Part shown: piece after piece, positions 4,962 through 35,951 of the stretch
How the letters are laid out: every line of letters begins with the position of its first letter
How positions within the stretch are numbered: the first letter of the stretch is position 1
Assembly (NCBI GenBank): GCA_017528045.1
Contig: JAFXPG010000005.1
Span: 1,370-65,369, forward strand
Length of the DNA: 64,000 bases
Origin: Alphaproteobacteria bacterium
Lineage (GTDB): Bacteria > Pseudomonadota > Alphaproteobacteria > Rs-D84
Reading direction: 5' to 3'
The notes under the pieces: generated by a model
What the model saw: the letters and a program-made list of their open reading frames with translations, nothing else
What the model was told of the DNA's origin: nothing
Databases searched by the model: none
Program-made: the position numbers and the translations under genes

Positions 4962-5969
4962 ATGTCAGATAAAATAATATATCATTTTGAAAATATTTAT
5001 AAACCTGTAAAACACAGTTCTTTGACTAAGTTTATAAAAAAGCGTGGTTTTGTTAAACATGCTGGAACCATAAAATGCATATTTAAACAATGTGATGATG
5101 TAAATGATCATATTGGATCTTTGCCTCCAGAATTATTAAATTTGGTTCGTGATGATAAAAACATATCCTTAATTACATTAACTTTTTATGAAATATTGGA
5201 TGATTTTATACTGAATAATAATTGGGGGTTACGCAGAAGAAAACAACAGTTTTATAATATTCCTGAATTAGAAAATTTATTTAGTACTGATTGTTTTTTG
5301 CAGACATATGAAGAATGTGATGGTGAAAAAATAGAATGGTCTGGTGTTTTTTCTGATGTTTATAAACTATGTTTCCCGACAATAAAAGTAAATTATGCTT
5401 TAAAATTATTTAAAAAATGTGTTTTTGCTTTAGATTCTTTATATGGACATGGTCCAATATATGAAATAACAACTAATTTTTGTGCATGTAAATCAGAACC
5501 AAAATTGAATAATACTGTTTATATGGCCAGATTAAGAAAAAATGAATATGTTGTAAGTAAATGGTTGGATAAAAAATCAGATTGTATAATTCCAGAAGAT
5601 GGTCCGTTTGCAATATATTTAACTTCTGATAGAGAAAAAAGACAATCTAATTATATAAATTCTTTGCGTATAGATTTTGGTGAAACAAGAAAAAGTGATT
5701 ATGGAAATTTATCGTATAATGCCAGAAAGATATACAGACAATTATTTTATAAAGATTATAATGCTGTAATATACGCTTTCTTTACATTAAAAGATAATTT
5801 TCAAAAAAGAGATTTTCAACAAGCTTTAGAATTATACATTGAACAATGTATATATGGTAAAAAAACAAAATTATCTGACGAACAAAAATATGAAATACGG
5901 AAGATGATTACTGATAAAAACAGTTTAGTTTTACATGAAATTTTAAGTCAAAATTTAAATACCAGATAA
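4962..5969 (+). CDS. hypothetical protein, kinase-like fold (paralog A)
   Basis: WSGVFSDVYKL, YALKLF, SNY...RIDFG; clear paralog of the next gene. Confidence 0.65.
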   Translation: MSDKIIYHFENIYKPVKHSSLTKFIKKRGFVKHAGTIKCIFKQCDDVNDHIGSLPPELLNLVRDDKNISLITLTFYEILDDFILNNNWGLRRRKQQFYNIPELENLFSTDCFLQTYEECDGEKIEWSGVFSDVYKLCFPTIKVNYALKLFKKCVFALDSLYGHGPIYEITTNFCACKSEPKLNNTVYMARLRKNEYVVSKWLDKKSDCIIPEDGPFAIYLTSDREKRQSNYINSLRIDFGETRKSDYGNLSYNARKIYRQLFYKDYNAVIYAFFTLKDNFQKRDFQQALELYIEQCIYGKKTKLSDEQKYEIRKMITDKNSLVLHEILSQNLNTR

Positions 5970-5972
5970 TAT

Positions 5973-6890
5973 ATGAAAAATACACAACAATCTTTATCAG
6001 ATATAATACATGTGAAAACAAAACATTCTTCTTTTAAGAAGTTTTTGCTTAAGCATGATTTAAGACATGCTTATAATATAGAACAAATTATTACAGATTG
6101 TGATGTAAAACCAATTGTTGGATGTTTACCAATTCAATTGCGTGCTTTGATTGAAAAAAAAGATTTATCTGATGTTACGTTAAGATTTTTTGATATTTTA
6201 AGTTTTTTTATTGCTAATAATTATGATGAATTATTATTCAAGACAAAAAAAGAATATGAATTAAAAAATTTGTCAGATTTATTTAAAACAAAATGTATAT
6301 TGTTTACAAGTGAACTTGTCAGAACTGATATAATAAATGGTGAAAAAATAGATTTTTACAAAGAATGGGCTGGGGCGGTAAGTGATGTTTATAAATTGTC
6401 TTTCCCAGAAATAGGTATTGATTATGCATTAAAGATATTTAAGAAAAACATTATTCCAACCGTTGGCATGGGACCTTTTTATGAAATTCCGACTGCATTT
6501 AAAGCAAATAAATGTGAACCAAAATTGAATAACCCCATATATATGGCAAATTTATCAGAATATCAATGGACTCTGAATAAATGGGTTAATCATACTGATA
6601 ATGAAAAAGTTCCTGATGAAAGAGAGCATGCTATATATATAACATCAGAAGAAGAAAATAAACCAAGAAATTATTGTAATGGGAAACGTATAGATTTTGG
6701 AAAAACACGAAAAACCGTTTATGGTGGTTGTTCATATCCTGTTCGTAAATTATATCGACAAATGCAAAATATGACATATGAACAATTGCAAACACTGGAA
6801 TCAAAAAAGAAAAACAATTTTGATTTAGAAAATTATAGACGTGCACAAGATACAATATATATTGAATATATCAGTGAAAAGTATCGCTAA
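5973..6890 (+). CDS. hypothetical protein, kinase-like fold (paralog B)
   Basis: WAGAVSDVYKL, YALKIF, NKPRNY...RIDFG. Confidence 0.65.
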   Translation: MKNTQQSLSDIIHVKTKHSSFKKFLLKHDLRHAYNIEQIITDCDVKPIVGCLPIQLRALIEKKDLSDVTLRFFDILSFFIANNYDELLFKTKKEYELKNLSDLFKTKCILFTSELVRTDIINGEKIDFYKEWAGAVSDVYKLSFPEIGIDYALKIFKKNIIPTVGMGPFYEIPTAFKANKCEPKLNNPIYMANLSEYQWTLNKWVNHTDNEKVPDEREHAIYITSEEENKPRNYCNGKRIDFGKTRKTVYGGCSYPVRKLYRQMQNMTYEQLQTLESKKKNNFDLENYRRAQDTIYIEYISEKYR

Positions 6891-9765: not shown

Positions 9766-10656
9766 ATGAGTAAGACATATTCAGGTTTTATTGCTATTAT
9801 TGGACCGACTAATGCCGGTAAATCTACACTTATTAACCAAATTATGGGGCGTAAGGTATCTATTGTTTCTCATAAAGTTCAAACAACCAGAACGCGTTTG
9901 CGTGCTATAAAAATGGTTGGGGATAGGCAATTGATTTTTGTTGATACACCTGGGGTATTTAAGCCGTCACGTCGTCTGGACAGGGCTATGGTTGGTGCTG
10001 CTATGTCTGCGCTGGATGATGCGGATGCTGTTTTGTTGGTAGTTGATGCTCAAAAAGGGATAACACAAACAATAACAGATTTAATTTTTAAAATAAAAGA
10101 CCATAAAAATTTATTTGTTGCACTTAATAAAGTTGATGCTGTTTCAAAATTAGATTTGTTACCAATAGTGGATCAGATTTCAAAAATGGCTGATTTCAAA
10201 GAAATATTTATGATATCGGCTTTGAAAAATGATGGAATTCAACAAATGTTAGTATCTTTAAGTGAAGTTATGCCACAATCGCCATATTTATTTGAAGCAA
10301 AAGATGATGTTGATGTTCCAGATATGTTATATTTATCAGAATTAACACGTGAAAAAGTTTATAAATATATTCATCAAGAATTACCATATCATATTAACGT
10401 AGTGACTGAAAAAGTTGAAACAGATGAAGAAGGGGTTTTGGAAATATACCAAAAGATAGTTGTTGCAAATGAAGCACATAAAAAAATAGTTGTTGGTCGT
10501 GGTGGTGAACAGTTAAAGAAAATTGGAACTGCTGCAAGACATGATATACAAGATCAATGGGGTGTAAATGCTAGGTTGCATTTATTCGTCCGTGTTGAAG
10601 AAAATTGGGAAAATGTTGCTGAAAATTATACTGACCAAGGATTAGAGTTTAAGTAA
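9766..10656 (+). CDS. era: GTPase Era
   Basis: GPTNAGKS, SHKVQTTR, DTPG, NKVD and a KH domain. Confidence 0.97.
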   Translation: MSKTYSGFIAIIGPTNAGKSTLINQIMGRKVSIVSHKVQTTRTRLRAIKMVGDRQLIFVDTPGVFKPSRRLDRAMVGAAMSALDDADAVLLVVDAQKGITQTITDLIFKIKDHKNLFVALNKVDAVSKLDLLPIVDQISKMADFKEIFMISALKNDGIQQMLVSLSEVMPQSPYLFEAKDDVDVPDMLYLSELTREKVYKYIHQELPYHINVVTEKVETDEEGVLEIYQKIVVANEAHKKIVVGRGGEQLKKIGTAARHDIQDQWGVNARLHLFVRVEENWENVAENYTDQGLEFK

Positions 10657-11676
10657 ATGTTACACACATCTGATTTTGATTTTGAATTACCGCCTGAATT
10701 GATTGCGTCGCATCCGTTGCATGAAAGGGATGCTTCGCGTATGTTGGTTGTTGATGGTAAAGAAATAGCTGATAAACATATTCGTGATTTTATATCGTTC
10801 TTGCAACCAGGTGATGTTGTTGTGTTTAATAATTCGCGTGTTATCCCGGCACGTTTTGAAGCGGACGGCCACGAAATAACCTTGCATACATCTGTGAACG
10901 ATAAAGATTGGTGGGGGCTTTGTAAAAAATTCAATAAAATCAATGTTGATGATACATTAACTATGATTGATGGCACAACATTAAATGTATTAGATAAAGA
11001 CGATGACAGTGGTTTGTTATTGCATTTTAATTGTGATAATGTTTTCGATTTATTGAATAAATACGGAAAAATGCCTTTACCGCCATATATGAAACGTGAA
11101 GAAGAAACCGAAGACCGCGAACGTTATCAAACCGTATATGCGCAACCTTTGGGATCTATGGCGGCACCAACGGCAGGCCTGCATTTTACCAATGAATTAC
11201 TTCAAGAAATAGAAAAAGCTGGTGCAAAAATTGTAAAAGTAACTTTACATGTCGGGGCAGGGACATGGATGCCTGTAAAAACAGAAAATTTATCTGAACA
11301 TAAAATGCACAGTGAATGGTGTTGCATTACACAAGAGCAGGCAGATATTATAAATAATGCAAAACGTATTATTGCTGTTGGGACAACTTCTATGCGAACA
11401 TTGGAAAGTGCATCAAAATTAGCTAAAGAAAATGGTTTTAATGGACGCGTTCATCCTATATGTCAAACAACAGATATTTTTATTACACCAGGATATAAAT
11501 TTGGTGCAGTTGATGTTTTGTTAACAAATTTTCATTTGCCAAAATCAACTTTGTTTATGTTGGTTTCAGCTTTTGCTGGATTGGAAGAAATGAAAAATGC
11601 TTATAAACATGCTGTTTCAGAACAATACAGATTTTTTAGTTATGGTGATTGTTGTTTATTATTCAAAAAGGATTAA
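10657..11676 (+). CDS. queA: S-adenosylmethionine:tRNA ribosyltransferase-isomerase
   Basis: PLPPY, YQTVYA, AAPTAGLHF, TNFHLP and YRFFSYGD motifs. Confidence 0.97.
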   Translation: MLHTSDFDFELPPELIASHPLHERDASRMLVVDGKEIADKHIRDFISFLQPGDVVVFNNSRVIPARFEADGHEITLHTSVNDKDWWGLCKKFNKINVDDTLTMIDGTTLNVLDKDDDSGLLLHFNCDNVFDLLNKYGKMPLPPYMKREEETEDRERYQTVYAQPLGSMAAPTAGLHFTNELLQEIEKAGAKIVKVTLHVGAGTWMPVKTENLSEHKMHSEWCCITQEQADIINNAKRIIAVGTTSMRTLESASKLAKENGFNGRVHPICQTTDIFITPGYKFGAVDVLLTNFHLPKSTLFMLVSAFAGLEEMKNAYKHAVSEQYRFFSYGDCCLLFKKD

Positions 11677-28642: not shown

Positions 28643-29197
28643 ATGACCACAAAAAATATTACTGATATTGATACAGAATTAAACATTGCGTGGTTAAATT
28701 GGCGCCAAGAAATACAAATATATTGGCAACGAGCTCTATATTTTTTTGGTTTCATAAGTATTATTGGAGCAGGGTATTTAAAAATAAAAACTATGACCCC
28801 AAGTAATCCGATAATTTCGTTATTATTTAGTATGTTGTTTACATTTTTGGCTTTTTGTTGGTATTTATCAAATCGTGGTTCTAAATTTTGGCAAGAAAAT
28901 TGGGAACTGCATATAAAAGAATTAGAGTCTTTAAGAAAATATTCTTTAACGGATGTATTAAGCAAAAAAATAGATAATAAAAAAATATTAAGTTCTTATC
29001 CTTTTTCACCATATAAAACTAATACTTTAATAAGTTTAACAGTATTCGTTTTCAGTTTGGTGTGTATGATTTGCGAAGTATTATCATTATTTGATCTTGG
29101 TAAAGATACAAATAAATGGATTTTGTTGATTACTGTGTTGTTCTTGTTGTTTATTATAAGAATACCGAATATGGTTAAATTTAGAAAATTTAAATAA
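28643..29197 (+). CDS. 4-TM membrane protein, putative pore-forming defence protein
   Basis: R..EI..YWQRA.YF and RGSKFWQENWE motifs; very low GC. Confidence 0.6.
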   Translation: MTTKNITDIDTELNIAWLNWRQEIQIYWQRALYFFGFISIIGAGYLKIKTMTPSNPIISLLFSMLFTFLAFCWYLSNRGSKFWQENWELHIKELESLRKYSLTDVLSKKIDNKKILSSYPFSPYKTNTLISLTVFVFSLVCMICEVLSLFDLGKDTNKWILLITVLFLLFIIRIPNMVKFRKFK

Positions 29198-29231
29198 AAA
29201 AAACCGCTCTTAGTGGCGGTTTTAAATTTTG

Positions 29232-29339
29232 TGGTCGTGCAGGGATGTCGGTTTTCGAACTGATATTATTAAGATTGGACGGGATATTGAAGGTGTAAAA
29301 CGAATATTAAATGTTGAAATTTTTGAAACCATTTTTTAA
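29232..29339 (+). repeat. att-like junction 1 with coding-like tail
   Basis: TGGTCGTGC-N15-CGAACT; reads WSCRDVGFRTDIIKIGRDIEGVKRILNVEIFETIF*. Confidence 0.7.
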
Positions 29340-29419
29340 AATAAGAATATAGTCAAAAAGGGAGTAAATATGAAAAAAATAATGATATTGTGCCTTGGAA
29401 TTGGTTTGTTTATTGAAAA
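29255..29419 (+). repeat. 165-bp direct repeat, copy 1 (copy 2 at 33612-33776)
   Basis: Identical except for 2 substitutions, by eye. Confidence 0.9.
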
Positions 29420-29423
29420 ATAA
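29370..29423 (+). pseudogene. truncated copy of the 33727 gene
   Basis: MKKIMILCLGIGLFIEK* versus MKKIMILCLGIGLFIENADAAY... Confidence 0.85.
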
Positions 29424-29621
29424 CAGCTAACATCTTTTCCAGTGTTTTTCCTGCACAAATAATATACGATATCATAAAATAAAACAATATTTTTATAAAT
29501 GTAAATATTTGTGTGTGCTTGAGAAATTATAGAGATTTGTAATTAGATTGATTTCTTTTTAACAGTTTGAACAGCACTTAAAAATATGATATAATTCAAC
29601 AGTGCTGGAGGGAATTTAACC

Positions 29622-30371
29622 ATGAAAAAAATTATTTTTTGTATGTTTGTATCGTTTTTGTGTTTATGTAATGCTGGTGCAGCAACCCAGATAAAATGTC
29701 CAGCAGGATTTTTTTGTGCTTCCAATGGAGTATACACTCCTTATGGAGGAGGTATACAATCATACCAAAAAGGGGCTGCAGAACAGGTTACTCCTAGTTG
29801 GGGTGATTGGAGTGAAGAACTATTTTGTTCGTCTTGTAAAAAAAGTAGGTCTGGCTGTTCTTATTGTGCAGATGATTATGACGAAGCATGGGTTTCAACG
29901 TGGTTTGGTTTTTACTTAATAAAAAATGGTGAAGTTACACATCATACATCTGGAAATTCTCCAGCTAGAGGGGCTTTCCCTTGTCCTGGTACGTATCCTT
30001 CTTCTGCTGAGGGGGCAACTTCTGTATTTGAATGCTATAAAGTTGTTGGTAATGGTCAAAAAGAATATTATAAAGCACCAGTAAATACACAAACAAATTA
30101 TTCTGGAAGTTGTGATATTGCTGATTTACAGGCTTTATTTGAAAATTTACAATCAGCATTGAATAATGCAAATAAATTAGCACAAGATTTACAAAATGCA
30201 TTGAATAAAGCGCAATCTCAATCTTTGGTAAAATCTTCTAAGTTAGAATTGACAAAAAATATTTCAGAAGATAAAAAATCTTTTCAATCAGGTAAAAATT
30301 TGCGTTCAGGTTCCGCACGTTTAAATAATGATATAGAAACGGCAAAAGCAATGATAAAAGCGGGTATATAA
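29622..30371 (+). CDS. secreted Cys-rich protein
   Basis: Signal peptide, CPAGFFC, CPGTYPSS..GATS..ECY, coiled-coil tail. Confidence 0.8.
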   Translation: MKKIIFCMFVSFLCLCNAGAATQIKCPAGFFCASNGVYTPYGGGIQSYQKGAAEQVTPSWGDWSEELFCSSCKKSRSGCSYCADDYDEAWVSTWFGFYLIKNGEVTHHTSGNSPARGAFPCPGTYPSSAEGATSVFECYKVVGNGQKEYYKAPVNTQTNYSGSCDIADLQALFENLQSALNNANKLAQDLQNALNKAQSQSLVKSSKLELTKNISEDKKSFQSGKNLRSGSARLNNDIETAKAMIKAGI

Positions 30372-30498
30372 AAAAACGCCATTTAGTGGCGTTTTTTATG
30401 TTTATTGATAAAAAGCCTGTTTTTCGTGTTTTGTATGATTTATATTGCAAAGTTATATGCATGTATTAGAATTTGCGTAAAAAGTAAAAGGATTTTTT

Positions 30499-30861
30499 AT
30501 GGCAAAAACGTTAAACCAGACACCTTTTAATATATCTATTAAAAAATCTATAATAAGTGCTGTTAAGAAAGGTTTAGTAATTCAAACCCTGGATGGGCCG
30601 GCTGTTGAAGATTATGTTCTATTTGATGTAAAGACAAAAAAACAAGTTCTAAGATTGCGTGAAAATTATGCAACAGTATTTTCTTCTATAGTTTTTAGCG
30701 AAGATAATTATTATATGACAAAAGATGCATATAGTATGGTTAATGGTGTTCTTAATCTACAGAAAAACGCACAATCTCCGGATGATGCTCATTATATTCC
30801 TGAATTAGATTTTAAAGATATTTATACTTTAATGAAAAGTGTTGCAGTAAAGGTAAGATAA
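30499..30861 (+). CDS. hypothetical protein
   Basis: 120 aa; SD AAAGGA. Confidence 0.65.
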   Translation: MAKTLNQTPFNISIKKSIISAVKKGLVIQTLDGPAVEDYVLFDVKTKKQVLRLRENYATVFSSIVFSEDNYYMTKDAYSMVNGVLNLQKNAQSPDDAHYIPELDFKDIYTLMKSVAVKVR

Positions 30862-30871
30862 AACAAAAAAC

Positions 30872-31438
30872 ATGCAAGCTGTAATAGATTTTTTTAAACA
30901 ATTATTTACAAAAGATTTTAATTCTGAATATAACCATTCAAATTACATAGATGTTGTTGATGGTAAAGAATTTTTTCATTTTGATTGCAGCGGCTTTGTA
31001 TATTGGTGTTTATTACAAATGGGTTATAAACGTTCTTTGGTTGAATTAAGAAGTTTTCTGAAAGAACATAACTTTATAAAGATAAACAGATTCTTTTGTA
31101 AAGATTTTAAATTTATTCATGAACATAAAAACAGTTTTAAATATTGGAATTTTGTAGATAAACCAATAGCTGGATGTGTTATGGTGGTTGTTTTTCCTGA
31201 TGAAAACGGGCATTGTATGTTTGTTGATAAACTTATAAATATAGATAAAGATAAAATGTGTTTGCATATAATTGATTCCACTCGTTATTTACATAAAAAC
31301 GATACCAGAAGAAACTCAGGAATAGGGTTGGGAGAGATAGAAATTATTCATAAAAATAATGAATGGTTTTACAATTCAAATAATAAAGAATTACCTGTCA
31401 GAAAAGCAGAAATATATTTTGTTTGTCCAATAAAATAA
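30872..31438 (+). CDS. NlpC/P60-like papain-fold hydrolase
   Basis: FDCSGFV catalytic Cys motif, GHCM His, IIDST. Confidence 0.65.
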   Translation: MQAVIDFFKQLFTKDFNSEYNHSNYIDVVDGKEFFHFDCSGFVYWCLLQMGYKRSLVELRSFLKEHNFIKINRFFCKDFKFIHEHKNSFKYWNFVDKPIAGCVMVVVFPDENGHCMFVDKLINIDKDKMCLHIIDSTRYLHKNDTRRNSGIGLGEIEIIHKNNEWFYNSNNKELPVRKAEIYFVCPIK

Positions 31439-31492
31439 ATAGACATAATAAAAATACAAAACCGCCCCTTAATGTAACAGTTTTGAATTTTG

Positions 31493-31561
31493 TGGTCGTG
31501 CTGGGATGACGGTTTGCGAACTGAAATTATACAGATTGGAAGAGAGATTAAGAACGATTGA
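31493..31561 (+). repeat. att-like junction 2 with coding-like tail
   Basis: TTTGAATTTTG-TGGTCGTGC-N15-CGAACT; reads WSCWDDGLRTEIIQIGREIKND*. Confidence 0.7.
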
Positions 31562-31623
31562 ATAAGTAAATTTTTGATAAATTCATACTTTTGTGCTATA
31601 ATTTACAATCAAAGGGGTGTTTT

Positions 31624-32994
31624 ATGAGCAAAAAAGAACAATTAAAAAACGGACAAAGAAAATTGATTTCTATGTATCAAGAAACACAAAAAGACAAAAC
31701 AACAAAAATGTCTGGTTGGGTTTGTGTCCATGCAACGAAATATATGCCTCAAAAAAATAAAGACGGAAATTATTTTATACAAACTACTGCGATGGCCACA
31801 GATTATGAAATACCGCGTTCAACAGTTCATGTCGCGTTAAACCATATTGTGTATTCTCATATGTCTGGTAATTGGGATGAAATGCCATTTATCATATTGG
31901 CCCCATATGTAGAAACCGTAGAATTTAACGGCAATCCGACAATGGTTCAAACACAAGATACTTATTTTACACCAAATCCGGACACAGGTTTAGTTTTACC
32001 AAAAAATACTTTTATTGTAAAAGCAGATAAAAACGCCAAAGAACTTTTTAATATTGGCGACCATGTTTCGACATATAAAGTTGGAAATTATACACCAGAA
32101 GAAACCGAAGAAATTTTACAAATCGCCGCCCATAACAATGAATTCGAATATGAACTTTATAATTATAACAGGTATTCTCGTGGGGAATTAAAAAATGGAC
32201 CTGAAAAGGCCAACATCCCCGAATTCAACGAAGAAAAAGACAAAGATGCCTATGTGCATGATTATTGTGAAAAACAAAAAAACGCGATTTTAACGCAAAT
32301 TTTACGCCGATCGGTTGTCGCTATAACCATGAATAAAATGGGATACAATTATGGCACAGTAAACGATTTCGGCGCTGCTGAAATTGCAACGGCATCCGGC
32401 TTGCAATCTAATAGCGGCAAATTAGCACACAGTTGTTCATTGGAAAAAACGATAGAATCAAACGGTTTTTTGTTAAGTCAATTACCACATTTATTAAGAT
32501 CTAATAATTTTGAAAATATATACAGTTGGTTAATACACGACAAACAAGGAGTACCTTTTGGCGAAGACACTATGCATCCGGAAATTGTGAAAAAATTCAT
32601 AATAAACCATATATTACAAGACAAGATGCCAGATTTTTATGATATGTATACGGAATTATTTGAAGATTATAAAGAAAGATTAAAAGGACACGCCAAAGCT
32701 ATGCAGTTATCGAAACCAGGATACGAAATTAAAATATATGGTTCTTTGAAAGAATACAATCCTTATTTGGATACGGTTGTACGTCGCAGTGCCGACAGAA
32801 TGAACCAAGAATATAAAACGGCATTTGAAAAATTAAAACAAAACCCAGAATTTAATAAATTCAAAGAACATTTAAGTAAATTTAATTCGGGTTTAATCTG
32901 TGAGATAGGAAGGGGTTTAGAAATCGATCTAAGCGACCTTACCCCAGAAGCAATGGCGTTGTTAGGATTGACTAACAACCAAAATGGTTTATAA
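31624..32994 (+). CDS. hypothetical protein
   Basis: Long ORF with motifs CVHAT and RSTVH.ALNH.V.SH..GNW; terminator at 32999. Confidence 0.75.
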   Translation: MSKKEQLKNGQRKLISMYQETQKDKTTKMSGWVCVHATKYMPQKNKDGNYFIQTTAMATDYEIPRSTVHVALNHIVYSHMSGNWDEMPFIILAPYVETVEFNGNPTMVQTQDTYFTPNPDTGLVLPKNTFIVKADKNAKELFNIGDHVSTYKVGNYTPEETEEILQIAAHNNEFEYELYNYNRYSRGELKNGPEKANIPEFNEEKDKDAYVHDYCEKQKNAILTQILRRSVVAITMNKMGYNYGTVNDFGAAEIATASGLQSNSGKLAHSCSLEKTIESNGFLLSQLPHLLRSNNFENIYSWLIHDKQGVPFGEDTMHPEIVKKFIINHILQDKMPDFYDMYTELFEDYKERLKGHAKAMQLSKPGYEIKIYGSLKEYNPYLDTVVRRSADRMNQEYKTAFEKLKQNPEFNKFKEHLSKFNSGLICEIGRGLEIDLSDLTPEAMALLGLTNNQNGL

Positions 32995-33025
32995 AAACAA
33001 AACCGCCATTAATGGCGGTTTTATT

Positions 33026-33499
33026 TTATCTTATAAATTCTGGGGTTTTGTTCAGTTTTTGAATTTTTGCTAATAATTCTGGCAAATATTTATCATAAGA
33101 ACGTGACCAAACTAACAATTTAAACAAAGTGACGACGTTTTCTTTGTGTGTTTTTTGTTCTATATGTAACATTCTGCGACAAGAACGTTTAATAATTCGC
33201 CATTGACGCACCGTTGTTGAAGGTTTCAAAATTATGATACGATCTGCTTGTTCCAGTATTGGTATAATCCAATCTTTCGTATATATTCCTTCTATGACCC
33301 AGTTGTCGTTTTCTGATAAAATTTTATCACGTAATTTAAGACGATCTTCTTTTGGACGTTCAACATTAAAATTGTTTTTCTGGTTTATCCATTTTATATC
33401 ATCTAAATCAAAGTGGGGTATATTATTTTCGGCAGCAAGTTTTTTTGCATAAGTTGTTTTACCACTGCCTGGACCACCAGAAATAAATATTTTTGCCAT
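33026..33499 (-). CDS. adenylate-kinase-like P-loop protein (FlaR type)
   Basis: KIFISGGPGSGKTT, DLDD, WVIEG. Confidence 0.85.
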   Translation of the reverse strand: MAKIFISGGPGSGKTTYAKKLAAENNIPHFDLDDIKWINQKNNFNVERPKEDRLKLRDKILSENDNWVIEGIYTKDWIIPILEQADRIIILKPSTTVRQWRIIKRSCRRMLHIEQKTHKENVVTLFKLLVWSRSYDKYLPELLAKIQKLNKTPEFIR

Positions 33500-33588
33500 G
33501 AATATAACCTTATTTTCACAGTATTGTATTAGAACAATTTTATTTTTGTATAAAGAACACCGCACATGGCGGTCTTTTTTATTTAATC

Positions 33589-33696
33589 TGGTCGTGCTTG
33601 GTGAACAATTCTCGAACTGATATTATTAAGATTGGACGGGATATTGAAGGTGTAAAACGAATATTAAATGTTGAAATTTTTGAAACAATTTTTTAA
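33589..33696 (+). repeat. att-like junction 3 with coding-like tail
   Basis: TGGTCGTGC-N15-CGAACT; reads WSCLVNNSRTDIIKIGRDIEGVKRILNVE... Confidence 0.7.
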
Positions 33697-33726
33697 AATA
33701 AAAATATAGTCAAAAAGGGAGTAAAT

Positions 33727-33948
33727 ATGAAAAAAATAATGATATTGTGCCTTGGAATTGGTTTGTTTATTGAAAATGCAGATGCAGCATATACGCGTGG
33801 TCATATGCGTCGTAATGGTACTTATGTATCAGGGTACCACCATACAAAAGCCGATAAGACCAGAATAAACAACTATTCAACACGTGGTAATTATAATCCA
33901 TATACAGGAAAAACAGGGACAAAACCACTTACTAAATACGGGTATTAA
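33727..33948 (+). CDS. small secreted protein of a mobile-element-associated family
   Basis: Signal peptide; G..RRNGTYV.G...NNYST.GN.NPYTG..GT. Confidence 0.8.
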   Translation: MKKIMILCLGIGLFIENADAAYTRGHMRRNGTYVSGYHHTKADKTRINNYSTRGNYNPYTGKTGTKPLTKYGY

Positions 33949-33970
33949 AAAACAAAAGGGGACATAAAAA

Positions 33971-34240
33971 ATGAAAAAAATTATATTTGCTTTTTGTGGG
34001 ATACTTTTAACGGTTAATGCTTGGGCAACTATGCGATATGAAATACAGGTCGCGCATAATGATGAATTTTTTATAATAAATGATGAAAAGTTTTCTGCTA
34101 AAACTTTTTGTTATTCGTGGGATGGTTTTGATCAAGGCGACTATGTTGTGTTTCTAGATGGTTCACCATTAGGTGTGTGTGCTACAGCTGTTATTGCGAA
34201 TCCTTCAACAGGTAAAACATGCGAATTATGGTGTGAATAA
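33971..34240 (+). CDS. small secreted beta protein
   Basis: Signal peptide; HNDE.FIIN.EKF.AKT.C...C..WCE. Confidence 0.8.
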   Translation: MKKIIFAFCGILLTVNAWATMRYEIQVAHNDEFFIINDEKFSAKTFCYSWDGFDQGDYVVFLDGSPLGVCATAVIANPSTGKTCELWCE

Positions 34241-34297
34241 ATAAAAGTAGGGTGGGAGATTGAAGATATGAAACGAATATTAAATGTTGAAAAATAA
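34241..34297 (+). repeat. partial fourth junction tail
   Basis: Reads IKVGWEIEDMKRILNVEK*, homologous to IKIGRDIEGVKRILNVE. Confidence 0.6.
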
Positions 34298-34340
34298 AAT
34301 GTATTGGAATACAGTCATAATATATAAGAAAGGAATCAAA

Positions 34341-34868
34341 ATGAAAATTATATCTAAACTGTATTTTAATGTTTTTAAAAATCTGGGAAATTTGCGTTTA
34401 ATGTTTGTGATTAGTTGTATATCTGCTGTGTTATGTTTCCTTGTTATAAATTCTCAAAACAGTAATATCTATTTTCATACTTATAATGACAAAACAGACA
34501 TTTCTTCTTTGTATTCTGATATAAATGGCCATTCTTATTTTAGTCCGGTACGGAAATATTCAGCGAAAGATTTACAAAAATTAAAGTCTTTTTATATTTA
34601 TCGTTTGTGTCAGACAAATCAAAAACAAGCATTTAATGTAGCAGAACAATGGTTTAGCAATGTTGGAAAAGGGAAAGAATTTAAGACTGAAAAAGAAATA
34701 TGTGAGATAGTTCCTAAAAAAACAGGATATTCGATACATATTTATTCTTTTTCTTACTTATGGAATTATCTTTGGATCATTTTTTGGTTTTATTTTCCTT
34801 TTCTATTAGTTTTACCAATAAGATTCATAATGGATGGTTATAAACAGGATAAAAAGAGCAAAAAATGA
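34341..34868 (+). CDS. 2-TM hypothetical protein
   Basis: SD AAAGGA; TM at both ends; RFIMDGY tail. Confidence 0.7.
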   Translation: MKIISKLYFNVFKNLGNLRLMFVISCISAVLCFLVINSQNSNIYFHTYNDKTDISSLYSDINGHSYFSPVRKYSAKDLQKLKSFYIYRLCQTNQKQAFNVAEQWFSNVGKGKEFKTEKEICEIVPKKTGYSIHIYSFSYLWNYLWIIFWFYFPFLLVLPIRFIMDGYKQDKKSKK

Positions 34869-35539
34869 AAGATAAAGTTATAAATATTTTTATATTGGCT
34901 ACTTTGGTTATGTCGGTTGTTTGTCTGCGACCTTTATATGGCCTTCATATTAGTGCTGATATTTGTTTCTTTATTGGTTCAGTTGTATTCTTTATTAAAG
35001 GGTATTTAAATTTTTGCACAGGCAAACATAAAAGTTTAAGTGCATATATAGGACATTTAAATCATAAACTTGAAGATTTTATTGGCAAACAAGCACATAA
35101 TTACAAAACAAAAGTATGGTATAAACAACCAAAATATTGGCTTTTGATATGGTTTTTCGGTGTTGTTTTACTGTATATGCTTAGATATTGGGAATTGCGT
35201 TATTCGAATTATTTTATAAGACATTTGTTATATATAATTCCTTTTTTACCATTTGTTATTCGTGGTTATGCCTTTCCTTTTGTTTGGTTGTTCTTTGCTG
35301 TACCAGTTTTTGGTCTTTTAAGAATTATAAGAGTATTTATGTCTGGTTGGTGGCATCCTGAATTATTGCCATTGATTTCCTTGATATGGGTATTACTTGC
35401 CGAAGGTTTTTTGATATATGTGTGCTATCGTATTGAACGCACAAGAAAGGATAAAAAATATACTTGGAAACAAATTGTTTTTGATGTGATTTTAAGTTTA
35501 ATACTGTTCGGTTTTTGTGTTTTTATGATAATGAGATAA
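34865..35539 (+). CDS. polytopic membrane hypothetical protein
   Basis: About 6-7 hydrophobic segments; ATGA overlap with the upstream gene. Confidence 0.7.
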   Translation: MKDKVINIFILATLVMSVVCLRPLYGLHISADICFFIGSVVFFIKGYLNFCTGKHKSLSAYIGHLNHKLEDFIGKQAHNYKTKVWYKQPKYWLLIWFFGVVLLYMLRYWELRYSNYFIRHLLYIIPFLPFVIRGYAFPFVWLFFAVPVFGLLRIIRVFMSGWWHPELLPLISLIWVLLAEGFLIYVCYRIERTRKDKKYTWKQIVFDVILSLILFGFCVFMIMR

Positions 35540-35690
35540 ATACCATAGCGGATTCGAACTCATAAAAAATGTTAGTTTTCTAACCTTTTTTCTTAAAAAG
35601 TTCGAAAATAGGGTAAAAATTGGTCGGGCCGGTTCCTGCCTCAATACACAATAAATAAAATTAAAAAAATCTCGTGTTAGAAAATATGTA

Positions 35691-35874
35691 GGGCGAAAGG
35701 ATTCGCTCGGTCGGCTTTGCCGACACTGCGCGGCAATCGTGACGATTTCGCTGCGCTGGCGCTTGCAAAATCTACTGCTTGTCGAACCTGACAACTTCGT
35801 TGTGATGTATCAAATCCAAATTTCGCAACGATCACAAAATTAAAACCACCACAAAAGTGGTGGTTTGAATTTCG
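35691..35874 (-). repeat. GC-rich tRNA-derived structured repeat downstream of tRNA-Pro
   Basis: 15-bp duplicate of tRNA sequence (35691-705 = 35881-895), nested hairpins, then TCGAACCT. Confidence 0.6.
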
Positions 35875-35951
35875 TGGTCGGGGCGAAAGGATTCGAACCT
35901 TCGACACCTTGGTCCCAAACCAAGTACTCTACCAGACTGAGCTACACCCCG
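35875..35951 (-). tRNA. tRNA-Pro (TGG)
   Basis: Reverse complement CGGGGTG...CTTGG-TTTGGGA-CCAAG...GGTTCGAATCC...CGACCA. Confidence 0.97.

Follow-up and report, generated by a model that had tools for sequence, protein, structure and literature searches.

What stacked several short gene units, each behind a copy of the same repeat, onto the 3′ end of a single tRNA gene? The locus in question lies at positions 29196-35951 of the window, a 64,000-nucleotide stretch of an alphaproteobacterial assembly (G000; 891 kb in 16 contigs, 92.6% complete, with 43 tRNA genes in 0.9 Mb), where a repeat unit of ~120-150 nt recurs downstream of a tRNA-Pro(UGG) gene. An initial annotation, made from the letters of this DNA, had taken the repeats for att junctions of recombinase-free cassettes, inserted at the tRNA CCA end by an enzyme acting in trans, and had proposed a new kind of integron-like gene-capture platform. 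We conclude, with a probability that we put at roughly 0.85, that the locus is an islet produced by repeated insertion of serine-integrase elements at the tRNA-Pro(UGG) 3′ end, followed by decay. The repeats are attL scars, each composed of an old tRNA trailer (hairpin and spacer), a 6-bp core and ~30 conserved codons.

A repeat anchored at tRNA 3′ ends

Each repeat unit is built in the same order: a terminator-like hairpin, an A+T-rich spacer (GAATTTYG), TGGTCG, a variable stretch of 15 nt, CGAAC and ~70 further conserved bases. On the + strand, the tRNA-Pro(UGG) 3′ end itself reads hairpin-GAATTTCG-TGGTCG, and the initial annotation had described it correctly. Its fixed-offset motif, TGGTCGTGC-N15-CGAACT, was likewise borne out at 29232, 31493 and 33589, all on the + strand, against 0.03 matches expected; none of 100 shuffles reached three. 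Nor is the motif scattered through the genome, as a scan of the whole assembly returned these three copies, all in the tRNA-Pro array, and one unrelated match with two mismatches on contig C16. The 70-nt stretches of the three copies are 79-86% alike. The similarity of copies 1 and 3 extends further, with 29220-29419 and 33577-33776 agreeing at 92% across 200 nt that take in the start of a small secreted-protein gene, and a partial fourth copy lies at 34241-34292. Intrinsic-terminator-like sites are frequent between 28500 and 36100 (14 against 3.3 expected), the array hairpins scoring among them.

Three of the scars in the array are full and one is partial, and a further junction has no scar, a count that implies at least 4-5 units, carrying genes C-D-E, F, G, H-I and J-K (Table 1). 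In keeping with the initial annotation, the open reading frame (ORF) map shows 1-4 small cargo genes after each unit: small secreted-looking proteins, one with weak CHAP and NlpC/P60 likeness, one P-loop kinase-like, two membrane-looking and several without a family. The units themselves are indeed free of recombinase genes, and the window contig has no match to a tyrosine or serine recombinase (PF00589, PF00239). No defence families were found in the window cargo, which gave weak P-loop matches only.

Scanning this and related genomes with a profile, as the initial annotation had envisaged, tied the unit to tRNA ends. A sequence model built from eight copies found three full copies in G000, all in the window array, and had matches in 116 of the 151 genus genomes, where 1-16 copies occur per genome and are often clustered. 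In a draw from the order, the unit occurred in 63 of 107 genus genomes and in none of 43 genomes from 21 other genera. We then examined 44 loci, of which 40 came from the upper parts of the match lists and the others were the window and three syntenic relatives; these are best matches and not a random sample, and the genus genomes are related and hence not independent. Long copies were present at 42 of the 44 loci. For 65 of 71 long copies, an opposite-strand tRNA gene lies on the side to which the copy points, at a median distance of 1.7 kb and a maximum of 7.4 kb, where by our own arithmetic (43 tRNAs in 0.9 Mb) chance would place a correctly oriented tRNA within a few kb of ~1 copy in 10. 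Five of the six tRNA-less copies point off a contig end, and the rest belongs to a 15.6-kb element whose tRNA was located later.

The anchoring tRNAs, counted by copy, are Gln(CUG) (34), Pro(UGG) (20), Gln(UUG) (6), Met (4) and Pro(GGG) (1), and the core letters follow the tRNA. The core is TGGTCG at Pro and TGGTTG at Gln and Met, the anchoring Met(CAU) gene ending in CAACCA, and the initial six letters of a copy equal the last six of its tRNA in 40 of the 42 copies whose start was located by pattern. The arrangement typical of tRNA islands, with an intact tRNA, a displaced end copy for each unit and a single orientation, was found for 65 of 71 copies; the copied stretch is 6 nt long, and 13 nt in one tRNA-Glu case. 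Cargo is diverse, with 69 clusters among 81 array ORFs (all-against-all BLASTP; the family scan covered the window only). Together, these results uphold the repeats as att junctions at the tRNA CCA end.

An integrase gene that crosses tRNA 3′ ends

The conserved bases after the core carry the marks of a coding sequence. Read from TGG, 38 of 40 copies remain open for at least 22 codons and then stop within ~36, giving the tail peptide W-(S/L)-C-x-x-(C)-N-S-R-(A/T)-(E/D)-(L/I)-(L/I)-(E/K)-I-G-(R/Q)-E-I-(D/E)-x-x-K-(D/E)-K-L.... Column entropy at codon positions 1, 2 and 3 was 1.22, 0.95 and 1.49 bits in unfiltered copies, and the TGG frame was the most conservative of the six in a test on copies pre-filtered for an open + frame, the stop counts of which are biased. 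No conserved start codon or ribosome-binding site precedes the tail in the array copies, since the adjoining upstream position is taken by the hairpin. When 1.84 billion proteins were searched with a profile, 74 matched, among which there was no long parent protein: 71 are short ORFs (30-127 aa) that have the motif at their end, and three long ones (709-2783 aa) were judged spurious, since they matched in short repeated stretches only. Coding constraint on a sequence with neither a start codon nor a parent protein must therefore originate outside the array. At least 71 clusters of 30-127 aa annotated as ‘proteins’ in public sets are gene-called scars with the integrase tail at their end, and are annotation artefacts.

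Relatives carry the gene to which the tail belongs. In genome G223, the unit adjoining tRNA-Gln is 6.7 kb long, has two older scars behind it, and ends in an ORF of 501 aa with Resolvase, Recombinase and Zn_ribbon_recom domains (Pfam). This ORF terminates as ...NGCQS-W-LGQLDSNQH-stop inside the opposite-strand tRNA-Gln, and its W codon is the TGG that complements CCA. Integrase homologues occur in 61 of the 151 genus genomes, ~33 of them near full length (hand tally); the recombinase of whole elements measures 500-535 aa. At all 14 loci that were fetched, the ORF ends inside an opposite-strand tRNA, namely Gln(CUG) at eight, Pro(UGG) at three, and Gln(UUG), Met and Asn at one each. Because the integrase ORF runs antisense across the tRNA CCA end, attP would lie inside the integrase gene.

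Five whole elements could be delimited from scar to integrase and tRNA, with lengths of 5.9, 6.7, 7.5, 10.2 and 15.6 kb. Their cargo includes a type III restriction-modification pair, a HigB-like toxin, an Mrr-like nuclease, a protein with an ADP-ribosyltransferase domain and an AAA_15/AAA_21 ATPase. TGGTYG is present at both junctions of the elements, at the scar and at the tRNA, and the scar tail is in the same frame as the integrase W codon, so the gene on an excised circle would run through TGGTYG into ~30 further codons. The hairpin, too, falls within the integrase reading frame, where AAA CCG TTC ... GAA CGG TT encodes K-P-F ... N-G and reads as a terminator on the tRNA strand.

Traces of the same gene body persist at many junctions. 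Many matches in the genus cover only residues ~436-501 (the last 50-66), for example beside tRNA-Gln of G155:C11, and the stretch upstream of many junctions, with its TTCGAA palindromes and leftward extended -10, is mostly a remnant of the last ~55 integrase codons; the remnant peptides K-S-S-K-V and L-L-S-N-C are read from AGTTCGAAAGT and CTTTCGAAC. One metagenome contig preserves ~55 integrase-like codons whose frame continues past W into that of the tail. What follows TGGTCG is therefore no dedicated cassette site but the 3′ end of a large serine recombinase gene, displaced from the gene body. The notion of a recombinase-free capture platform of a new kind falls as well, since the enzyme is an ordinary-looking large serine recombinase encoded in whole elements of relatives. 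The cognate recombinase that had been expected elsewhere in this genome was found in those relatives and not in G000, where tblastn gave only tRNA-antisense pieces and a 24-26% match, the latter to an unrelated 542-aa serine recombinase on C4 near tRNA-Ser.

The range of targets is wider than Pro, Gln and Met. A scar-like unit lies behind tRNA-Glu(CUC) at locus L060 (G003:C2), at ~10004-11151, and has 13 nt (TGGCAGTCCCAAC) in common with the tRNA end; this unit and the homologous integrase at L076, which ends in tRNA-Asn, together show that the family extends to further tRNA species.

These features suggest a course of events in which a genus-wide family of 6-16 kb islands would insert, one after another, at the extreme 3′ ends of tRNA genes, with the crossover probably falling within TGGTYG. 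The integrase gene lies at the tRNA-proximal end, antisense over the presumed crossover site, with TGG serving as a Trp codon. Integration would join the gene body to the tRNA, so that the protein gains a short tRNA-encoded tail, and the gene's own last ~30 codons would be stranded at the opposite element end, next to the trailer that the tRNA had before. This far-end junction of hairpin, spacer, TGGTYG and ~30 codons would be the repeat seen in the window. The integrase 3′ end in turn encodes a trailer-like hairpin and spacer, and an element end that resembles a tRNA trailer could make an occupied tRNA look empty, so that the next element may enter between the tRNA and the previous element. 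Older elements would then lose the integrase gene and much else, leaving stacked remnants without an integrase, at least four of them in this genome. The integrase-less units of the window look like such decayed elements, that is, cis-mobilizable elements (CIMEs).

Strain differences and competing explanations

Relatives differ in array content at the junctions. A unit with a cargo gene of ~800 aa adjoins tRNA-Pro in G001 and G111, and G009 has two more scarred units in between. A block of 946 nt common to two genomes ends exactly after TGGTTG, to be followed by the tRNA body in one and by the next scar in the other. We also examined strain contigs from source runs recorded as animal gut metagenomes, one of them as bovine gut; stretches without cover in runs X5, X6 and X9 were not scored as absence. 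In a contig of run X6, the sequence after 33067 continues as GTGGTCGTGCAGGGATAGCAA (GTGGTCGTGC...) and then as scar sequence, with the break between spacer and TGGTCG. Because this contig joins the gene F spacer to TGGTCG and a scar, the gene G unit (33068-33588) is absent there. The same strain has 131 nt at the start of gene C (29644-29776, the signal-peptide region) replaced by 125 other letters, the rest being ~95% identical. Contigs of runs X4 and X5 break at repeats and offered nothing further.

Several observations weigh against the account of serial insertion and decay. Some differences between strains do not break at the core: a run X9 contig joins 30374 to 30867, skipping 492 nt (gene D and its hairpin) with no scar at the edges; the X6 contig departs from the window sequence to the left of 29410, where the 200-nt duplication ends; and a block that is 90% identical in G153 and G155 has both its boundaries within scars and not at TGGTTG. 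The array must therefore also be shaped by homologous recombination and by plain deletion, and the expectation of the initial annotation that cargo would vary at TGGTCG is borne out by the X6 junction and not by the breaks at gene D and 29410. At the G000 junctions themselves, the integrase remnant amounts to a hairpin and spacer at most, and the descent of these units from integrase-bearing elements is argued from relatives. What suggests re-use of an occupied tRNA is solely the trailer likeness of the element end, and attR is not normally accepted as attB by serine integrases. The contigs examined contained no excised circle and no integrase gene in the attP form, with body and tail joined, and neither a joined attP form nor an empty-site junction was seen in strain, viral or metagenome contigs. 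Among 46 metagenome loci with 50 copies, none had a full integrase upstream, the longest upstream open frame being 83 codons. Viral contigs gave no match to the Gln-type motif and one to the Pro-type motif, a chance match in the coding region of a phage contig of 45% G+C.

Part of the initial proposal may survive as an addition to serial insertion and decay. The integrase-less units could be live non-autonomous cassettes, moved by an integrase in trans that acts on the scar as an attP-like site and on the tRNA junction as an attB-like site, which would make the tRNA end a gene-capture platform. One unit is 92.6% identical over 528 nt between tRNA-Gln(UUG) in G060 and tRNA-Gln(CUG) in G084, and another is 90.4% identical over 1363 nt between tRNA-Gln in G153 and tRNA-Met in G155; flanking core proteins are only 57-79% identical. 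Both unit ends stay conserved, scars persist in 88 of 118 genomes without a full-length integrase (hand tally), and cis-mobilizable elements with such logic are described for tyrosine systems in portions of PMC5704250. Set against this are the missing circle and empty site, shared blocks that are not bounded by the core at both ends, which fits homologous exchange equally well, gene-sized differences without scars, and an integrase remnant whose length varies widely between units, as decay would predict and a defined cassette would not. On balance, we consider such mobility in trans possible, while leaning against it.

Two other explanations would dispense with insertion by the integrase. If the locus were a flexible island turned over mainly by homologous recombination, with scars and tRNA as portable homology and no current site-specific recombination, one would expect block boundaries inside scars, as in G153 and G155, a contig break at the end of a 92% identical duplication, as in run X6, and breaks at repeats in contigs of other strains. 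We nevertheless regard this as improbable, since it leaves unexplained the location at tRNA 3′ ends only, the single orientation, the core letters that track the tRNA and the tRNA-overlapping integrase at the ends of whole elements, and since other breaks fall exactly after TGGTTG or before TGGTCG. Still less credible, to the point that we give it almost no weight, is that the repeat is a host cis element or small gene, such as a secreted-protein promoter or leader or a ~30-aa peptide, copied by segmental duplication. A promoter-like TTGAAA-17-TAAAAT within copies 1 and 3, the ATG at the start of a hairpin-less copy on G000:C3 and the protein-like constraint on the tail frame would fit such a gene. 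Promoter-like sites, however, occur at chance frequency (44 against 44.1 expected), the array copies have no conserved start codon or ribosome-binding site, cargo lies behind the unit on either strand, the repeat matches no Rfam family, and the tail continues the integrase frame.

Other candidates for the repeat or its mover were rejected. A tRNA-like or other RNA repeat found no support in Rfam, where neither gathering thresholds nor a limit of E up to 5 brought up anything besides the two tRNAs and look-alikes of terminators, and the stretch after TGGTCG is, by eye, 3-5 nt too long for a tRNA 3′ half. Elements of the Xer/dif type (integrative mobile elements exploiting Xer, IMEX, and dif modules) were set aside because the sole dif-like site found in G000 (dif having two 11-bp arms around a 6-bp centre) lies at C11:102654 and the junctions, on reading, are unlike it. 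An IS200-type HUH transposase found no support, G000 having no match to PF01797. Small serine recombinases of 199 aa are present in 113 of 151 genomes and do not track the scars, occurring in 18 of 20 listed scar-less genomes and being absent from at least 16 scar-bearing ones (hand comparison). The tyrosine integrases of G154 and G009 have tRNA-Asn and tRNA-Ser as neighbours instead of a Pro, Gln or Met tRNA.

In G000, the 199-aa serine recombinases are encoded at C4:46671-47270 and C7:9982-10578; in many cases no more than 30 nt separate such a gene from a contig end, which would suit a repeated mobile or invertible segment, and one stands directly beside a scar in G083. The tyrosine integrases, of 408 and ~561-566 aa, lie at loci L061, L063 and L064 (G154, G009) beside tRNA-Asn, tRNA-Ser(GCU) and phage-like small genes, and represent ordinary islands that this genus carries at other tRNAs.

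Neighbouring inserts and relation to known systems

Table 1. Features between the first junction and tRNA-Pro(UGG), in window coordinates.
Feature	Coordinates	Strand	Remarks
Terminator-like hairpin and spacer AAATTTTG	29196..29231		Former tRNA trailer, left half of junction 1; terminator-like on both strands at 29200-29223
Scar 1 (attL)	29232..29339	+	TGGTCG core, 35 open codons and stop (WSCRDVGFRTDIIKIGRDIEGVKRILNVEIFETIF); displaced serine integrase 3′ tail
Shortened 5′-end copy of the secreted-protein gene at 33727	29371..29424	+	Within the 200-nt duplication 29220-29419
Cargo gene C, 249 aa	29622..30371	+	Signal-peptide-like start, Cys-rich, no family match
Cargo gene D, 120 aa	30499..30861	+	Separate gene-sized unit with upstream hairpin 30371-30397; homologue alone in G111
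Cargo gene E, 188 aa	30872..31438	+	Weak CHAP and NlpC/P60 likeness, under Pfam cut-offs
Degenerate hairpin and spacer GTTTTGAATTTTG	31458..31492		Left half of junction 2
Scar 2 (attL)	31493..31561	+	TGGTCG, 22 codons and stop (WSCWDDGLRTEIIQIGREIKND)
Cargo gene F, 456 aa	31624..32994	+	No family match; homologue in G104
Hairpin, degenerate hairpin, spacer ending GAATTTTTG	32996..33069		Scar-less junction; a related strain has TGGTCGTGC and a scar exactly here
Cargo gene G, 157 aa	33026..33499	-	P-loop kinase-like; with its own hairpin and spacer fills 33068-33588
Hairpin and spacer	33555..33588		Left half of junction 3; terminator-like at 33559-33573
Scar 3 (attL)	33589..33696	+	TGGTCG, 35 codons and stop; initial 30 nt identical to a G001 scar
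Cargo genes H (73 aa) and I (89 aa)	33727..34240	+	Signal-peptide-like starts in both
Partial fourth scar	34241..34292	+	3′ part of the tail only, without TGGTCG; 81% to 29268-29319
Cargo genes J (194 aa) and K (224 aa)	34284..35539	+	Membrane-looking by eye; no family match over cut-off
Broken tRNA-Pro 3′-end copy, GGGCGAAAGGATTCG ... TCGAACC	35691..35800		Split by a ~80-nt G+C-rich insert
Present tRNA trailer: spacer CGAAATTC and terminator hairpin	35838..35874	-	Terminator-like on the - strand, 35866-35843
tRNA-Pro(UGG)	35875..35951	-	Last six bases CGACCA (TGGTCG on +), the shared core

Some cargo recurs at other tRNAs and in other genomes. A homologue of gene E that is 68% identical adjoins tRNA-Pro in G004, and gene G has homologues in the tRNA-Gln and tRNA-Met arrays of G081 and G155. 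At the tRNA-proximal edge, the present trailer and the tRNA end would form the site used by the next element.

Directly behind the tRNA lies a non-coding insert of ~190 nt (35691-35875), which is also found at G000:C9:28347-28408. It opens with 15-25 nt copied from the tRNA 3′ end, which a G+C-rich core of ~80 nt interrupts in the T-loop, and has its own hairpin and spacer at the end. The core (35726-35789) recurs on numerous contigs in many genus genomes, beside tRNA-Met on G000:C9 and behind tRNA-Gln and tRNA-Met in relatives, and the insert is a second, miniature kind of tRNA-end insert. At locus L018 (G002:C7), ~5889-6321 of the locus, three hairpins with tRNA-Pro 3′-end copies follow one another ~192 nt apart directly behind the tRNA, in what looks like tandem copies of this miniature insert. 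Between gene K and the insert, a conserved stretch at 35545-35640, with two TTCGAA motifs and TGGTCGGG at 35620, is 93% identical at the same place in G009 and occurs in other genomes; it may be a further decayed junction.

Elsewhere in the assembly, the reverse strand of G000:C3 (~2252-2422 of the reversed contig) holds a tail copy that lacks hairpin and TGGTYG and opens with ATG for 29 codons. It follows a GNAT-like gene and a stretch like an integrase remnant, on a 3.2-kb contig without a tRNA, and could be what is left of an element that had inserted away from any tRNA, or else a fragment produced by assembly. At G000:C9:23127-23456, ARAGORN reports a tmRNA gene with tag AANDNVRFAMAA and marks it with an asterisk, which we take to denote a permuted, two-piece gene; such a form would point to an alphaproteobacterium-like organism.

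tRNA genes are classic targets of tyrosine integrases. An excerpt of a 2014 reference work states that serine recombinases were not known to use them, and the main text of a large survey of large serine recombinases (PMC10083194) does not contain the word tRNA. Large serine integrases of the phiC31/Bxb1 type have the same three-domain architecture and size as the enzyme described here, a short crossover identity and a gene at the element end, and differ in their targets, which are protein-coding genes or intergenic sites in the portions of the literature consulted, as against the CCA end of at least five tRNA species here. The enzyme with Resolvase, Recombinase and zinc-ribbon domains at the element end is found in relatives; G000 and its window hold remnants only.

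Accretion and decay have a close precedent in tyrosine systems. In CIMEs and tandem accretion of the ICESt1/ICESt3 type, an element likewise integrates and decays to an att-flanked remnant without integration genes (portions of PMC5704250), and the window units too keep att sites and have no integration genes. Those systems use tyrosine integrases and longer repeats of the target gene, whereas here we find a large serine recombinase, a 6-bp core and a piece of the integrase gene in the scar. That gene's layout also has a parallel, in IntP of myxophage Mx8 and in SSV-type integrases, where attP likewise lies within the coding sequence and integration provides a new 3′ end (excerpts of PMC6070905 and PMC4383910). 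The Mx8 and SSV enzymes are tyrosine recombinases; the integrase here has only serine-recombinase Pfam domains, and the swap affects its last ~10-36 residues.

Integrons offer the comparison that the initial annotation had drawn. They, too, are arrays of mostly one-gene units with a conserved site of ~100 nt, growth at a fixed end and diverse cargo, but depend on IntI and an attC fold, where the present units have a coding remnant and a terminator hairpin, cargo on either strand with its own promoter-like sites, and a tRNA anchor. No IntI-type tyrosine recombinase lies beside the array: PF00589 in G000 is confined to two Xer-sized genes on C16 and C9 (together, PF00589 and PF00239 matches lie on C16, C9, C4 and C7), and none lies beside arrays in five other genomes searched. 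An attC-type fold, with imperfect inverted repeats that pair as single strands, was not found either, the hairpin being perfect and terminator-like and the alignment fold having 17 pairs without a compensatory change, although no dedicated attC model was run. With no IntI, no attC fold, cargo on either strand and a tRNA anchor, the array is therefore not an integron. What holds of the integron-like description is tandem accretion at a tRNA end; its cause lies instead in a tRNA-targeting serine integrase and subsequent decay. The Tycheposons of Prochlorococcus reportedly employ tyrosine recombinases, and their partial repeats of the tRNA are reportedly tens of bases long. They are likewise tRNA-anchored islands made of element arrays and cargo-only remnants, according to parts of a preprint (bioRxiv 10.1101/2020.12.28.424599).

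The logic of accretion and decay and the layout of a gene across attP are thus known, and their combination with a large serine recombinase at the tRNA CCA end appears to be new. The literature searched yielded no description of a serine integrase that has tRNA 3′ ends as its target or a gene extending across attP. A bolder version of the model, which we consider doubtful, would have CCA-specialised serine integrases with an intragenic attP use the swap of ~30 C-terminal residues as a switch of activity or direction, with each insertion re-creating the site, the integrase 3′ end doubling as a new tRNA trailer and terminator, and with remnants moved in trans, so that an open-ended, integron-like accretion platform would operate in a gut bacterium of ~0.9 Mb.

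Collectively, our results extend the target range of serine integrases to tRNA genes, at least five tRNA species being used at their CCA end in more than 100 species of one gut genus. An integrase gene that spans attP suggests control through two alternative C-terminal tails, and integrases with natural, highly conserved attB sites in many bacteria are possible tools. For the organism itself, serial insertion and decay would explain both the strain differences at the array and how a reduced genome of ~0.9 Mb maintains a small region of rapid turnover, with genes for secreted and membrane proteins and, in relatives, for defence.

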